Position numbers and translations under genes: made by a program
Part shown: piece by piece, positions 6,199-21,309 of the stretch
Layout: every line of letters starts with the position of its first letter
How positions within the stretch are numbered: the first letter of the stretch is position 1
Source: a virus
IMG/VR virus record: IMGVR_UViG_3300035211_000102
DNA: 22,906 nt
Direction: 5' to 3' (one strand)
Notes under the pieces: model-generated
Told to the model about the DNA's origin: nothing
Databases searched by the model: none
The model's input: only the letters and a program-made list of their open reading frames with translations

Positions 6199-6612
6199 CT
6201 AAATACTCCTCTTCCCCAAAATTACTGTTGAGAAATCAGGAAGTGGATCACCTTCCAGACAGCAATACAGATGGAGACACCGAGGATGGATGTTCACATG
6301 CTCATCCTTTGGAGCGAACACCATGATGCACTTCCGGTCTTCTCCGGCCCAGTGCCGCTTCAAGTACGTCAACTCATCGTACGTCGGCATGCGCCTCCGG
6401 TGTGAAATCGACAGATGAAGCCACACGCGATCATCCCCGTATAGTGCAATCGACGCCCCTACCCTCAACAACCTCTTGTGGTTGTCCCACATCCCATCCG
6501 TCATGCCTGGTCCGCCCATTACCTGCACCCACCCAGGAGGAAGTTTCTCCCCCGTCAACGGCAAGCTGTACTGCATTGCCCTCTTCCAGGATGGATCACC
6601 GAAATCCTTCAT
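6199..6612 (-). CDS. hypothetical conserved-looking protein
   Basis: 137 aa with WLHLSISHRRRMPTYDELTYLKRHWAGE. Its ATG overlaps the upstream DnaJ-like stop (4-nt ATGA). Confidence 0.5.
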   Translation of the reverse strand: MKDFGDPSWKRAMQYSLPLTGEKLPPGWVQVMGGPGMTDGMWDNHKRLLRVGASIALYGDDRVWLHLSISHRRRMPTYDELTYLKRHWAGEDRKCIMVFAPKDEHVNIHPRCLHLYCCLEGDPLPDFSTVILGKRSI

Positions 6613-7367
6613 GAATCACCAACCTTGAACAGTCCCCTCGGAATCACAGGATTGAACATCTTCACCTCTCCTATCCCATGGCACTCCTCGCACACGAGAT
6701 AGTATGGCTTTCCATCTGTCTTGATCTCCGTCGTTCCGTCCCCGAAGCATTTTTCACAGGGTATCCCCCTCCTCTGCGTTCCAGGAATATACGGAGCCGT
6801 GGACGGCATCCGAAACCCAAAACCAAATGAATCTCTCCATTGCGAACCACGTCGCTTGTTGAACGGATAGAATTTACCCGTACCCTTGCACTTATAGCAC
6901 TCCCCGATATCTTTCTTGCTCTTCGGATGGATATATCTCCCTGTCCCCTTACATCTCTCGCATGGATAGAACTTCAGCCCGTCACCGCCGCACAAGGTAC
7001 ATTGTTCAAACTTTCCAGTTCCCGTTGACATCCCAGAATATCGCTTGAACCCCAGCCCTTCACATCTTTCACACGTCCTTGCATTCTCTGTAATCGGGTA
7101 GCCCCTCCCGAGATCTGACAGTTTCTGCCCATCAATAGTATAAAGCACCTTTTTCTGATTCTCCGCTTGCCCTTCCAGCAGCTTAAATGCTGATGTAAGA
7201 GCGCCAAACTCCTCATCTGTCCCACCATGGTCTGGATGCTTATCCATCACCAGAACTCTGTATGCCTTTTTCAGCTCTGCCCTTGAAAAATTTTCAGCAA
7301 GCAAATTCCCAAACAGCTTCTTCGCCTGATCCTTGTCCATTTTTGCCATTCCCTTGAGATCAACCAT
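6609..7367 (-). CDS. DnaJ-like co-chaperone: J domain plus cysteine-rich zinc-finger (CR) domain, no C-terminal substrate-binding domains
   Basis: The J domain ELKKAYRVLVMDKHPDHGGTDEEF carries the HPD tripeptide. Six CxxCxGxG repeats follow: CERCEGLG, CTLCGGDG, CERCKGTG, CYKCKGTG, CEKCFGDG, CEECHGIG. Confidence 0.8.
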   Translation of the reverse strand: MVDLKGMAKMDKDQAKKLFGNLLAENFSRAELKKAYRVLVMDKHPDHGGTDEEFGALTSAFKLLEGQAENQKKVLYTIDGQKLSDLGRGYPITENARTCERCEGLGFKRYSGMSTGTGKFEQCTLCGGDGLKFYPCERCKGTGRYIHPKSKKDIGECYKCKGTGKFYPFNKRRGSQWRDSFGFGFRMPSTAPYIPGTQRRGIPCEKCFGDGTTEIKTDGKPYYLVCEECHGIGEVKMFNPVIPRGLFKVGDS

Positions 7368-15972: not shown

Positions 15973-16238
15973 CTTTCCTTCAGCCTTCTCAGCCTCGCGA
16001 CAATGTTCCCGGTAAATGACTCTGGTCCACCAGGGGCCTCTATCACCCCCTCTTCCTCGTCGCAATCGAATACCCCTGAATACTCGGGATCTTCCAGCAG
16101 ATCGTCTTCGTCGTAGAAAATACCGGGCGGTATCCTGAAGTCTCCATTGGGATCCTCGCTAGATAAAACACTTCTACCCACCGAAGAACTCCTGCCCCTT
16201 TCCCCAAGGAACGCCCATCTCTGTCTAGCCTTTCCCAT
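15969..16238 (-). CDS. hypothetical acidic protein whose RBS and first 18 codons are duplicated at 17855..17921
   Basis: 89 aa, starting MGKARQRWAFLGERGRSS. AGGAAA RBS 6 nt upstream of the start. Confidence 0.45.
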   Translation of the reverse strand: MGKARQRWAFLGERGRSSSVGRSVLSSEDPNGDFRIPPGIFYDEDDLLEDPEYSGVFDCDEEEGVIEAPGGPESFTGNIVARLRRLKER

Positions 16239-16250
16239 CCAAGTTTCCTA
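16185..16250. repeat. dispersed direct repeat, copy A (RBS + start + about 18 codons)
   Basis: AGAACTCCTGCCCCTTTCCCCAAGGAACGCCCATCTCTGTCTAGCCTTTCCCAT... About 90% identical to 17855..17921. Confidence 0.7.
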
Positions 16251-16584: not shown

Positions 16585-17877
16585 TCACGCCTCCTGTATT
16601 GGTTCGTAGTCTTTCTCTTCCTGCCATCCGGTCCATGCAACAGCCTGATGCGCTGTCGTGCACTCGGGTGGCACTCGTAATGCATAGCGTCTATTAGTGG
16701 AAGGATCCGACACAAAAACAAATTTTGCGATAGGATCTTCCCCATCGAGGTACTCCCCGAGCCGGTCCGTACTGACGAGTGTACCATATCGGTCTGTTTG
16801 CTCAGTGGTTGCCTGAAGGTCAATTAATAAACGGTCCCACCCATATCTCTCCAGCATTACTCTCCTGATCTCCTGATTGTTTTCGGTCAGAACTTTTTGT
16901 GGCGTAATCTTTTCTGGCGACTCTATCACCCACTGTGGCACACGTACTCCATGCCACGCCCAGATGCCAAATCCGTCTGCATACTCTAAAGCCCTCCTAG
17001 ATTCATGATGCAATCTGAAATTGTCATCCCGCGTGAGAAAAATTGGACGCTCCGTAAATATCACCGCGTTATCAAGCGGCCACCACCAACCAACCTCTTT
17101 GGAAAATTCAATCATCGGCCGTAACAACTGACACTCGTCCTGCAAATATTTATAAAAATAATCATAAAATGACAGCCAACTCGAATCATGAATTCCATAT
17201 CCACATCTATGCACCTGATCCAAGACCTGATCCTTGACCTGATCCTTGACCTGAGCCTTGACTTGATCCCAGACCTGACCCCAGACCTGTTCCCTAACCT
17301 GATCCCAGACCTTAGCCCTGACCTGATCCCTGACCTGAGACTTGACCTGAGCCCATACCTGATCCCAGACCTGACCCCCTACTTGATCCCAGACCTGATC
17401 CTTGACCTGAGCCATAACTTGATCCCCGACCTGATCCCCGACCTGATCCCAGACCTGACCCCAGACCTGATCCCCGACTTGATCCCAGACCTGACCCAAG
17501 ACCTGAGCCATGACCTTATCCCCGACCTTATCCCTGACCTTATCCCTGACCTGATCCTCGACCTGAGCCCCGACCTGAGCCCAGACCTGATCCTTGACCT
17601 GAGCCATAACTTGATCCCTGGCCTTATCCTCGACCTTGCCCAGCAATACAGATCCAATCCACCCCGCTATCGGAGAGGATAACCATATTTTAATTTTTGG
17701 TGGTTCTAGCCCCGCCGACTGATAAACTGGATCAATCAGCCGTTCGCATTTTTTCCGATCACATGGTCCAGTCTGGAGACCTATTTTCAGCCATCGCTCC
17801 CGGACTCTCTGCATTCTATCTACTTGTTCCTCGTTCAATTCCGTCAATATCATCAGAACTCCTGCCCCTTTCCCCAA
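16585..17877 (-). CDS. tetrapeptide-repeat protein (x-Q-V-x)35 flanked by unique N- and C-terminal domains
   Basis: 430-aa track ORF (TTG start). About 140 central residues are in-frame [D/A/G]-Q-V-[W/K/R/M/G/E/L] repeats. The unique C-terminal domain contains WAWHGVRVPQWV...RVPPECTTAHQAVAWTGW. The true start may be the ATG at 17853 or a reinitiation ATG just after an upstream uORF. Confidence 0.6.
   Translation of the reverse strand: MGKGAGVLMILTELNEEQVDRMQRVRERWLKIGLQTGPCDRKKCERLIDPVYQSAGLEPPKIKIWLSSPIAGWIGSVLLGKVEDKARDQVMAQVKDQVWAQVGAQVEDQVRDKVRDKVGDKVMAQVLGQVWDQVGDQVWGQVWDQVGDQVGDQVMAQVKDQVWDQVGGQVWDQVWAQVKSQVRDQVRAKVWDQVREQVWGQVWDQVKAQVKDQVKDQVLDQVHRCGYGIHDSSWLSFYDYFYKYLQDECQLLRPMIEFSKEVGWWWPLDNAVIFTERPIFLTRDDNFRLHHESRRALEYADGFGIWAWHGVRVPQWVIESPEKITPQKVLTENNQEIRRVMLERYGWDRLLIDLQATTEQTDRYGTLVSTDRLGEYLDGEDPIAKFVFVSDPSTNRRYALRVPPECTTAHQAVAWTGWQEEKDYEPIQEA
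17217..17636. repeat. 35 contiguous copies of a 12-bp tandem repeat (plus-strand consensus GATCCYWGACCT)
   Basis: Directly visible in the sequence, e.g. gatccttgacct gatccttgacct gagccttgactt gatcccagacct ... The units are in frame, so the other two frames are open as well. Confidence 0.9.
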
Positions 17878-17921
17878 GGAAAGCCAACCTCTGTCTAGCC
17901 TTTTCCATCAAAATTTTCCTA
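17855..17921. repeat. dispersed direct repeat, copy B
   Basis: AGAACTCCTGCCCCTTTCCCCAAGGAAAGCCAACCTCTGTCTAGCCTTTTCCAT... This copy encodes a 30-aa uORF MEKARQRLAFLGERGRSSDDIDGIERGTSR in a different frame from the repeat-protein ORF. Confidence 0.7.
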
Positions 17922-19277: not shown

Positions 19278-19587
19278 CTTCTCCCTCCGAGTATGTCACT
19301 TTGAATCCAAGTTTCTCCAGCCGGTCAAAGATTGTTGTCGTTCCATTCATAGCGGATTCCAGCTCCACAATCGCGTTAGCCGGTCCCTCCTCAATGGACA
19401 TAATCTTCCCGCAAAAAACCACCCCGCAACTGTCGGATGCAAGACTCCTGATCTGACACTGAGACGGATGCATCCATACGAGATGTCTATCCTCTGTCCT
19501 GAAGATCGCCGGTCTCTGCCTACCTACCGACACCCCCTTGCTACGTAGAATCTCCCATTCCACTCCCTTCGGATCAGAATCTTTCAT
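19228..19587 (-). CDS. hypothetical protein
   Basis: 119 aa; ATGA overlap with the upstream gene. Confidence 0.45.
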   Translation of the reverse strand: MKDSDPKGVEWEILRSKGVSVGRQRPAIFRTEDRHLVWMHPSQCQIRSLASDSCGVVFCGKIMSIEEGPANAIVELESAMNGTTTIFDRLEKLGFKVTYSEGEDEEGQDGADNDTRGAD

Positions 19588-19949
19588 CGAACTCCTCCTT
19601 TTCGAATCCGGAGCAATCGGTCAATTTCAGCCGCGATGAGCGCCCCGGCCTTCACCAAGAGATCTATCCTCTCACCTGGTGTATACTCTTCCGGCTTCGC
19701 TCTCACGCCCCGGTCTGAAGCTTTGCACCGGTGTCTCTTGTCATCACTCATATCCCATGGCCATGGGTCATAGAAGGATACCTGGGATGTCGTCTCCAAC
19801 ATCCTAAAGATAGGAACCGGCGCAGCGTAGCAACAAGCAGCTAGAGCTAGTTTCCCATTCTTGTGCCTATCGTCGTGCTCCGCCGTCCACCCCTCTTCTT
19901 CGATCTGACGTTTTCTCTCTTCAGCTATCAGCTCAACTCCGCTTTTCAT
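19584..19949 (-). CDS. hypothetical protein
   Basis: ATG at 19949 (MKSGVELIAEERKRQIEEEGWTAEHDD...) preceded by AAGGAG at spacing 9. The track version starts at 20009. Confidence 0.45.
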   Translation of the reverse strand: MKSGVELIAEERKRQIEEEGWTAEHDDRHKNGKLALAACCYAAPVPIFRMLETTSQVSFYDPWPWDMSDDKRHRCKASDRGVRAKPEEYTPGERIDLLVKAGALIAAEIDRLLRIRKGGVR

Positions 19950-20223
19950 CCTTCTGCTCCTTCGGAAACATCTCCTTGCATTTATCAAGAAAATCCTCTG
20001 GCTCAACATCTTTCCATTCCTCCCGGATCAGACTCAGATCGTCGAAATACGAAAGAACCCCAGTGCTCCACAGTACCAGCTTCGCAAATTTCAAATTCGG
20101 GAAGAACTTCGAAGGCGGCATCCCCGTGTTCATCCATTTCACATGGCTAGCATTCTCAATGTCTTTCAAAAGAACTGGATGCATCTTCGTGAAACAGACT
20201 ACTGTATCAAGACCCACCATCAT
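19933..20223 (-). CDS. hypothetical protein
   Basis: 96-aa ORF on the coding strand. Confidence 0.4.
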   Translation of the reverse strand: MMVGLDTVVCFTKMHPVLLKDIENASHVKWMNTGMPPSKFFPNLKFAKLVLWSTGVLSYFDDLSLIREEWKDVEPEDFLDKCKEMFPKEQKDEKRS

Positions 20224-20415: not shown

Positions 20416-21019
20416 TCATGCCCAACGCCTCACCTCTTCGCATTTTGGACACCTTCCACACCTCGATCCATTCGCCCTCGGATTTTCGCATGACCACCAA
20501 CAATGATCTGGTACCATTGCCTTTTTCAGGTCACCGATTATCTCTCTCTTGGTTTTCCATTCGAAGGGGAACTTGACCTCCGCACTGACCCCCTTCAGTG
20601 CCATCAGCGCATCGAACGCACTGACAAACTCGTGTCTGTAATGCCACATCGCATCACCCTTGATGTAAGCAAACATCACCACATCATCATCGGTGATGCA
20701 CTGAGCAATAGCCACCAACCAGATCCACATCTGTCCAGGAGGTCCAGCCTCCGACGGACCCTTGGCATCAAAGCTCCCCCCCGAACTCAATCTCCTGTGT
20801 CCTGATCCAGTACCCCTTCTTCCTAGCGAGGTCCAGGTATCTTTCCCTTGCCTTTTTCTCGGCAGACAGCTGGGTGTCCCTCAGATTTGGATATGACGAA
20901 ATCGATATTGCATGCACCGGGTAATCTTTCGACGAAACACCCGCATAATATTCGAGCAAGGCCGTTGAGTCGGCCCCACCTGACCAAACTATTACATTTC
21001 TTCCCATGAGCTTACCCAT
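20416..21019 (-). pseudogene. queC: QueC-like PP-loop ATPase (7-cyano-7-deazaguanine synthase family) interrupted by a +1 frameshift in a G7 run
   Basis: N-terminal part (track ORF 20768..21103): NVIVWSGGADSTALL is the SGGxDS PP-loop. C-terminal part (track ORF 20416..20790): CWWSCENPRANGSRCGRCPKC is the QueC-type Cys4 zinc site. The two frames meet at GGGGGGG (coding strand, plus-strand positions 20776-20782), and deleting one G fuses them. Likely start: ATG at 21019 with a GAGGTG RBS. Confidence 0.65.
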
Positions 21020-21054
21020 CCGGATGCCACCTCTTGCCATATAACGTGACCATT

Positions 21055-21309
21055 CTATGCTTTGCTGTAATCCACAGCCTTCTTGACGAACCCGAAACAC
21101 CACTCGTCCTCCGGCATGACCGGAAAAAAACCGGCCGACCCGGGCCGCTCAGACTTCGGAGGCCGCGCCTTGCAGAACCCATACCGCTTCTTCGACGCGA
21201 CAACGATCCCGAGAGTGGACAGCTTCAAATCCTTGTTGTGCTCCCACGCTCCGCAATCCTCACAGAACCCTTTGAATCCCCATGGCATCTCCTTGTCAGG
21301 CTCTCTCAT
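21055..21309 (-). CDS. hypothetical Cys-containing protein
   Basis: 84 aa: FCEDCGAWEHNKD. Confidence 0.4.
   Translation of the reverse strand: MREPDKEMPWGFKGFCEDCGAWEHNKDLKLSTLGIVVASKKRYGFCKARPPKSERPGSAGFFPVMPEDEWCFGFVKKAVDYSKA

Follow-up and report, generated by a model that had tools for sequence, protein, structure and literature searches.

A 22,906-nucleotide stretch of viral DNA (IMG/VR record IMGVR_UViG_3300035211_000102; hereafter the window, meaning this stretch at its full length) carries on its minus strand two consecutive, overlapping open reading frames (ORFs), each of which resembles one half of a QueC-type enzyme. This arrangement raises two questions: why a single enzyme should be spread over two frames, and whether that enzyme belongs to the preQ0 pathway and 7-deazaguanine DNA modification, as an earlier note on this DNA had proposed. 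Our analysis points to one gene (20416-21019, minus strand) that is meant as a single frame and encodes a PP-loop ATP pyrophosphatase of about 200 aa with a C-terminal Cys4 zinc site. The run of seven G residues (G7) at the break is the in-frame G6 plus one G, which arose either from a homopolymer-length error or from a very recent slipped-strand insertion. The gene is part of a mostly viral, distinct branch of the QueC superfamily ("singleton phage QueC-like", PHROG 1550), outside the preQ0 pathway, and probably acts on a substrate other than 7-carboxy-7-deazaguanine (CDG). We put the probability of this explanation as a whole at roughly 70%.

The upstream, N-terminal ORF (20768..21103, minus strand) contains VIVWSGGADSTALL and ends with QEIEFGGEL followed by a TGA stop at 20768-20770, and the downstream, C-terminal ORF (20416..20790, minus strand) contains CWWSCENPRANGSRCGRCPKC. 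Both are halves of the one gene, set one base apart at a run that reads C7 on the plus strand and G7 on the coding minus strand (20776-20782). When one G is taken away, the frame continues through the junction and reads IEFGGSFDAKGP; further extracts of this repaired (G6) translation around the junction are QEIEFGGSFDAKGPSEAG and QEIEFGGSFDAKGPSEAGPPGQMW. We re-read the window and found the positions, sequences and repaired junction of the earlier note to be correct throughout. The gene probably starts at the ATG at 21019, which has the ribosome-binding site GAGGTGG, or at the ATG at 21007, which corresponds to homologues that begin MGRN(V/I)IVWSGG, and the GTG at 21103 is an unlikely start. 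An independent start of the C-terminal ORF was considered and rejected: the TTG at 20790 has AGGAG just 1 nt upstream, and the next ATG removes residues up to 96. An intron, an intein and a programmed -1 shift were likewise set aside, since the offset is exactly one base and comes without inserted sequence.

When the halves were searched separately with blastp, each matched one and the same intact ORF in 10-14 related loci (best E 1e-33 for the N-terminal half and 1e-69 for the C-terminal half), an agreement that, judged from these alignments, is far beyond chance. The merged 200-aa protein aligned with phrog_1550 ("QueC-like") over residues 5-197, junction included (E 3e-25), and eight intact proteins of 182-215 aa aligned with it end to end at 37-72% identity. 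At the junction, the nearest homologue reads IEFSGSFDAKGP and GIEFSGSFDAKGP and the repaired window reads EIEFGGSFDAKGP, without a gap, so that the G6 translation reproduces the SFDAK of that homologue. These results bear out the earlier claims that the two ORFs are one gene, that a one-base shift in G7 breaks it and that G6, which is colinear with the intact homologues, is the intact form. Related DNA has no G-run at the break site, reading TTT AGC GGG TCT TTC in locus L001 and TTT GGT GAT GGA TTC in loci L002-L004. Since relatives are without a homopolymer at this site, the G-run is lineage-specific and its in-frame length is G6. The gene is unbroken in about 50 related loci (from IMG/VR, JGI metagenomes, ENA, Logan and one metagenome-assembled genome, MAG), with L014 (10230-10387 of IMGVR_UViG_3300037851_000461) as the sole exception. 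This distant relative, at 28% identity, has a one-base shift at a G5 run (GCGGGGGCTTCC) in a different codon, and its copy also lacks the C-terminal Cys4 motif. The comparison with related genomes that had been proposed as a check therefore finds all close homologues in one frame.

The state of the sequence downstream of the shift bears on the age of the break. Among 66 members of the family, 5 positions are invariant and 14 near-invariant, and the window retains all of them, 14 of which lie downstream of the shift. The proportion of nonsynonymous sites that differ (pN) was similar in the two halves, at 0.23 (N-terminal) and 0.16 (C-terminal) against L001, 0.23 and 0.22 against L002, and 0.33 and 0.32 against L016. 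In the same comparisons, synonymous sites were saturated (proportion of differing sites, pS, 0.68-0.93), owing to which we dropped dN/dS and used the contrast between pN and pS instead. By this contrast, the downstream half is under purifying selection essentially up to the present. Since pN is low and equal in both halves and the conserved positions are kept, an old pseudogene is excluded, and the break is an artefact, a very recent event, or bypassed in expression. The decayed remnant that the earlier note had envisaged, with orthologues that are split as well, does not agree with these data: the downstream part shows no decay and the orthologues are unbroken.

Residual consensus errors concentrate at long G/C runs, which counts for an artefact, and this G7 run is the only G/C run of at least 7 bases in the coding sequence of the window, the other C7 run (2445-2451) being intergenic. 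We place a homopolymer-length artefact of sequencing or assembly at a little under even odds. A second explanation, which we regard as possible but doubtful, is that G7 is real and the gene is knocked out, as a null or heterogeneous allele. The gene would then be accessory and its null allele recent, either fixed or still segregating in this phage population, or the run would act as a reversible slipped-strand switch between G6 and G7. The same run speaks for this explanation too, since spontaneous frameshifts most often arise as indels at runs of this kind. The rest of the window is free of homopolymer-linked frameshifts and the data look accurate; a search for such frameshifts gave none, and an error-prone platform was rejected as a candidate. 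A one-base shift is present in the distant relative L014 too, and the gene has the patchy distribution and the lack of fixed neighbours of an accessory gene. On the other hand, with an undecayed downstream half the inactivation would have to be extremely recent, and two separate pieces of one Rossmann-type domain are unlikely to be functional. As for a switch, G7 runs are under-represented in the window (2 observed vs 7.5 expected from shuffles), and given this scarcity and the missing tract in relatives, we see no support in the sequences for evolved poly-G contingency (phase-variable) behaviour. All three options that the earlier note had listed for the break (sequencing error, real mutation and phase variation) thus remain, the last of them without support as an evolved contingency locus.

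A third explanation is that G7 is real and leaky, with a full-length 200-aa enzyme made by a +1 shift of the type known from prfB, where CUU would be in the P site and UGA in the A site and the yield would depend on release factor 2 (RF2) of the host. The prfB +1 site consensus is AGGGGG, a 3-nt spacer, CTT, TGA and then C; base pairing of the Shine-Dalgarno (SD)-like run with 16S rRNA accompanies a slip of tRNA-Leu from CUU to UUU, by which the ribosome passes the stop. The efficiency measured for this shift is near 53% in B. subtilis and near 7% in M. smegmatis (PMC12421855). On the coding strand, the shifted frame of the window reads GGGGGG GAG CTT TGA T (20768-20782) and so has three of the four prfB elements; common to both sites are the G-rich SD-like run, the 3-nt spacer, the slippery CTT-T, the TGA stop and the +1 direction of the required shift. 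Against an expectation of 0.04, the window has a single copy of the motif GGGGGNNNCTTTGA, which sits precisely at the break and in the frame required; 52 related loci have none. The predicted product, in which EIEFGGEL is followed directly by DAKGP, would have the 200 aa of the G6 product and differ from it only by SF to EL, in a loop where the predicted local distance difference test (pLDDT) score of the structural model is 63-74. The genes of the window also use strong SD sequences, which would suit such a shift.

Several observations speak against this third explanation, which we consider unlikely. Unlike prfB, no homologue is frameshifted at this position, so the shift is not a conserved programmed event, and the base after the TGA is T, a strong termination context, rather than the weak-context C. 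TGA is the dominant stop codon in the window (24/37), and such dominance goes with loss of the motif in bacteria. The motif can also be explained by the insertion itself: with the conserved peptide S-F-D, a G inserted before AGC-TTT-GAT yields CTT-TGA in an estimated 1/6 or so of codon choices, which makes a coincidence moderately likely. Should G7 be real, the layout could plausibly make it leaky, by analogy with prfB, but we do not take it as evidence of an evolved recoding signal. In its boldest form, this explanation would have a real G7 and a full-length enzyme produced solely by a prfB-like shift at GGGGGG-GAG-CUU-UGA, tied to host RF2, with a chemistry new to the QueC superfamily that acts on a nucleotide, DNA or protein. 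If true, it would make the break a newly arisen RF2-sensing recoding site outside prfB, and we hold it to be more improbable still. The remainder of the probability for G7 goes to other explanations. Taken as a whole, the break is an ordinary one-base homopolymer frameshift, recent if real, and the enzyme is a further member of a known, little-studied phage subfamily.

Which enzyme, then, does the unbroken gene encode? The PP-loop (SGGADS) and the Cys4 zinc site (CENPRANGSRCGRCPKC) that had been noticed earlier are both in place (Table 1), and so is membership in the QueC superfamily: the protein matches Pfam PF06508 (QueC) at 44.2 bits (E 2e-11; gathering threshold 22), with the C-terminal third alone aligning, and 64 of the 66 family members match PF06508 as well. 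The QueC equivalog model TIGR00364 gave 30.3 bits against a cut-off of 150.3, again through the C-terminal third alone, and among the 66 family members its best E was 6e-9, with none near the cut-off. True QueC has the signature YxQxHxxE, VPxRN and YPDC; changing Y35, R99 or Y131 to alanine inactivates the E. coli enzyme, and F is partly tolerated at the Y131 position (Libby et al. 2026, PMC13329287). In the profile alignment to QueC structure 2PG3, FDYGQRH is replaced by isvskhpnl, VPGRN by lPGQm (PPGQM in the window, where Q96 is near-invariant in the family) and YPDC by lWHy (DAMWHY in the window vs SGYPDC, with the family consensus D-d-F-W-H), so that all three motifs are missing. The window protein does retain the PP-loop, the zinc site CE-x8-C-x2-C-x2-C and, within FPFEWKTK, which matches PF(x)4K, the Lys that follows PF. 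The signature of the family is WSGGxDST / Q...W / GYIxxDxFWH / FPxEWxxK / CxWxCE-x(7-9)-CGxCxxC. Its profile gathered 669 clusters at 50% identity with E<=1e-10 and 1,599 with E<=1e-3, a total that seems small for a profile that would otherwise draw in canonical QueC and that fits a distinct branch. Scans of the protein and its 66 relatives against NCBIfam, Pfam and PADLOC for a named family gave weak QueC, TilS and LarE matches only.

The protein thus shares with canonical QueC (TIGR00364; structures 2PG3 and 3BL5) a Rossmann-type PP-loop fold, SGGxDS, the Lys after PF and a C-terminal CxnCxxCxxC zinc site, whereas it is only 16-20% identical, about 20-30 residues shorter, without the three substrate motifs and without linkage to queD or queE. 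Since the pocket residues Q96, W100, Y118, D122, W125 and H126 are remodelled, they argue for a substrate other than CDG. A genuine QueC that converts CDG to preQ0 and feeds 7-deazaguanine modification of the phage DNA, with the other genes outside the window, would account for the Pfam match, for the PHROG label "QueC-like queuosine biosynthesis" and for the presence of QueC structures among the best fold matches; the 22.9 kb of the window are probably part of a much larger phage genome, in which distant partners are possible. Nevertheless, the score lies 120 bits below the equivalog cut-off, and the three replaced motifs include residues that are experimentally essential. Pathway partners are missing as well. 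As the earlier note had remarked of the window, a domain scan of its 20 other proteins found no FolE, QueD, QueE or TGT/DpdA domain. No queD, queE, folE or tgt/dpdA was present among the 25 listed of 35 families (139 neighbouring ORFs, 12 related loci), and the annotated neighbours in five related contigs included no queD, queE, folE or dpdA. PF18144 and TGT had no match, either in the window or in the listed families of the related neighbourhoods. With the SP-15 homologue also a documented singleton (see below), we judge a genuine QueC to be very improbable, and the proposal of a preQ0-pathway or DNA-modification gene does not hold up.

The genes of the window are all on the minus strand and phage-like, and include an SNF2 helicase, a DnaJ-like protein, an RlaP-type nucleotidyltransferase, DUF3268, DUF6745 and a major-vault-protein homologue. 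In related contigs, the gene lies amid replication, recombination and nucleotide-metabolism genes (DnaB, RecA, SNF2, MT-A70, HNH, DUF5131, DUF1643, dCTP-deaminase-like, dUTPase and Mom). The neighbours DUF5131, DUF1643, MT-A70, HNH, dCTP-deaminase-like and dUTPase recur only loosely, and none is fixed beside the gene. One 37% identical homologue (P0008; L018 7494-8120 and L019 418-1044) is situated within a large cluster of glycosyltransferase, epimerase, PIG-L deacetylase and radical-SAM genes, which hints at functional heterogeneity within the family. A sugar-amidotransferase role, considered from this glycosylation context, was rejected because the context is not common to the closer phage relatives.

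In 50,697 phage records, the sole match to the protein was SP15_114 of Bacillus phage SP-15 (AMM44912), at 30% identity over 94% of the length. This gene is annotated as "7-cyano-7-deazaguanine synthase" and stands alone downstream of a DNA polymerase gene. Singleton QueCs such as that of SP-15 were left out of the deazaguanine systems because their function is probably unrelated, and the SP-15 singleton had no link to QueC or Gat-QueC in similarity networks (Hutinet et al. 2019, PMC6884629). A 2026 survey of PF06508 does not treat the orphan phage branch. The window gene and the SP-15 singleton belong to one subfamily (PHROG 1550), and each stands by itself in a region of replication and nucleotide metabolism that has no deazaguanine genes. 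They differ in that the window copy is broken by a one-base shift and, at merely 30% identity to SP-15, is closer to genes on uncultured phage contigs (46-72%).

The AlphaFold (AF2) model of the repaired protein (pLDDT 87.4; predicted template modelling score, pTM, 0.86) places the junction in a low-confidence surface loop, residues 79-94. Among PDB structures, its nearest match was Cap9 (9NTO_B; template modelling (TM) score 0.66/0.72), together with the QueC structures 2PG3 and 3BL5 (TM about 0.6-0.66), all at 16-20% identity, and more distant fold matches were the PP-loop enzymes TilS, NcsA, argininosuccinate synthase and LarE. The family profile searched against PDB gave E 0.005 for QueC 2PG3 and E 0.037 for Cap9. 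Cap9, from type IV CBASS (cyclic-oligonucleotide-based anti-phage signalling system), thus raises another explanation: the gene might encode a protein modifier of the Cap9 or QatC type, which would attach a deazaguanine to the N-terminus of a partner protein and serve either as defence carried by the phage or as a counter to type IV CBASS or Qat. Cap9 is the best structural match (9NTO chain B), has the same minimal fold of some 190-200 aa (about 185 aa in Cap9 vs about 200 aa here), and has PF(x)4K and CE...CxxCxxC in common with the window protein, which also matches the PADLOC QueC model (E 6e-10).

The differences from both systems argue against such a role. Cap9 retains the ancestral QueC catalytic core, with Y/FxQx5E, RN and Hx4YxDCxxxF (PMC13329287), whereas these motifs are missing from the consensus of the window family. 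QatC proteins are about 400 aa long, with N- and C-terminal extensions and qatA, qatB and qatD as neighbours, whereas the window protein has 200 aa, lacks the extensions and motifs of QatC, and has no KAP ATPase or TatD neighbour. Cap9 belongs to a bacterial defence operon, whereas the window gene is encoded by a phage. The window has no CD-NTase (cGAS/DncV-like nucleotidyltransferase), Cap10/TGT, QatA, QatB or QatD near the gene, and the listed families of its relatives include none either. The sole nucleotidyltransferase of the window is of the RlaP type and lies 11 kb from the gene. The family is also almost entirely viral: 185,579 species genomes held one match, on a 183-kb MAG contig. We accordingly regard a Cap9- or QatC-type modifier as very unlikely.

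We return to a phage-branch PP-loop enzyme, probably with a substrate of its own. If it works like QueC, Cap9 and other PP-loop enzymes, the protein would most likely bind ATP at SGGADS and adenylate a carboxylate of its substrate, the acyl-adenylate would be resolved by an amine or ammonia, and the Cys4-zinc module would shape the pocket. The enzyme may work without a dedicated neighbouring partner, within the replication and nucleotide-metabolism module of large phages. Phage SP-15 is known for hypermodified thymidine, and our leading guess, from the DNA-metabolism context of the phage relatives and the occurrence in SP-15, is a nucleotide or DNA-linked substrate.

Several points weigh against this account. 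The proposed chemistry is inferred from the fold and motifs only. A conserved partner or other clue to the substrate was not found by all-vs-all clustering of ORFs from 14 and then 22 loci or by a Pfam census of 139 neighbours. Regarding the break, the homologue-supported genes of the window (9.9 kb) contain 42 runs of at least 5 bases, none of which causes a frameshift; the sequence is therefore not generally error-prone, which argues somewhat for a real G7. Finally, the source contig or a near-identical one on which the G-run could be compared was not found by INPHARED megablast, by an exact 24-mer search of IMG/VR, by a protein-pattern scan of JGI metagenomes, or by a gene-position index and exact-protein look-ups of two neighbouring genes.

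Table 1. Positions of the QueC-like gene, its segments and its motifs in the window
Feature	Position	Strand	Remarks
Whole QueC-like gene	20416..21019	-	About 200 aa after correction of the one-base shift; merged translation colinear with 8 intact homologues; start and stop codons verified
N-terminal segment, frame 0 (83 aa and stop), Rossmann-like PP-loop half	20768..21019	-	
C-terminal segment, +1 frame, with motifs Q96..W100, YIKGD..WH, FPFEWKTK and the Cys4 site	20416..20775	-	
G7 homopolymer, site of the frame offset; in-frame length G6	20776..20782	-	
CTT TGA, final sense codon and stop of the upstream frame; G-run 3 nt upstream	20768..20773	-	
Shine-Dalgarno-like GAGGTGG	21027..21033	-	7 nt upstream of the ATG at 21019
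PP-loop SGGADS (ATP pyrophosphatase motif)	20966..20983	-	At least 90% conserved across 66 family members
Cys4 zinc motif C-E-x8-C-x2-C-x2-C, CENPRANGSRCGRCPKC	20440..20490	-	Four Cys invariant in 66 family members

Other features of the window were noted in passing. An 892-aa protein (11375-14053, minus strand) matches Pfam MVP_shoulder (E 1.6e-23) and Vault_3; it equals the eukaryotic Major Vault Protein (MVP) in size, and its residues 499-860 or so align to PDB chains of MVP (E 2e-18). In the phage collection, its homologues are found only in the huge uncultured phages LR756501/LR756503 (735 kb) and LR756500 (462 kb), at 35-36% identity and 93-95% coverage; viral MVPs are the subject of a 2023 preprint (10.1101/2023.11.10.566534). 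Inside the gene at 16585-17877, about 35 tandem 12-nt units (17213-17629, minus strand) encode tetrapeptide repeats of the type (D/x)QV(W/x), which occupy the N-terminal half of a 430-aa DUF6745 protein. The two copies of a 62-nt direct repeat (16185-16246 and 17855-17916; 90% identity) each cover a minus-strand gene's 5' end together with the leader upstream of it; both ORFs start LGKGAGVL, and the repeat may have come from duplication of a promoter or leader. A 141-aa protein (19584-20009, minus strand), encoded two genes downstream of the QueC-like gene, matches the C-terminal domains of at least nine PHROGs of unrelated length and of unknown function (E 1e-10 to 5e-19), and is apparently a widely shuffled phage domain. 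A DnaJ-like protein with a J domain and a CXXCXGXG zinc finger (6609-7367, minus strand) and the RlaP/phrog_388 nucleotidyltransferase (8754-9710, minus strand) have no connection to the QueC-like gene.

For annotation, these findings mean that the two ORFs should be called as one coding sequence with a frameshift flag and that the gene is no evidence for 7-deazaguanine DNA modification in this phage. The labels "QueC" and "7-cyano-7-deazaguanine synthase", the latter carried by the SP-15 copy, over-interpret a distinct subfamily, which comprises hundreds of 50%-identity clusters, is almost exclusively viral and is under purifying selection. The frameshift itself would be of importance only if it is both real and leaky. 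Since the QueC relatives Cap9 and QatC have recently been found to conjugate nucleobases to proteins, the orphan phage branch is a reasonable target for biochemistry.

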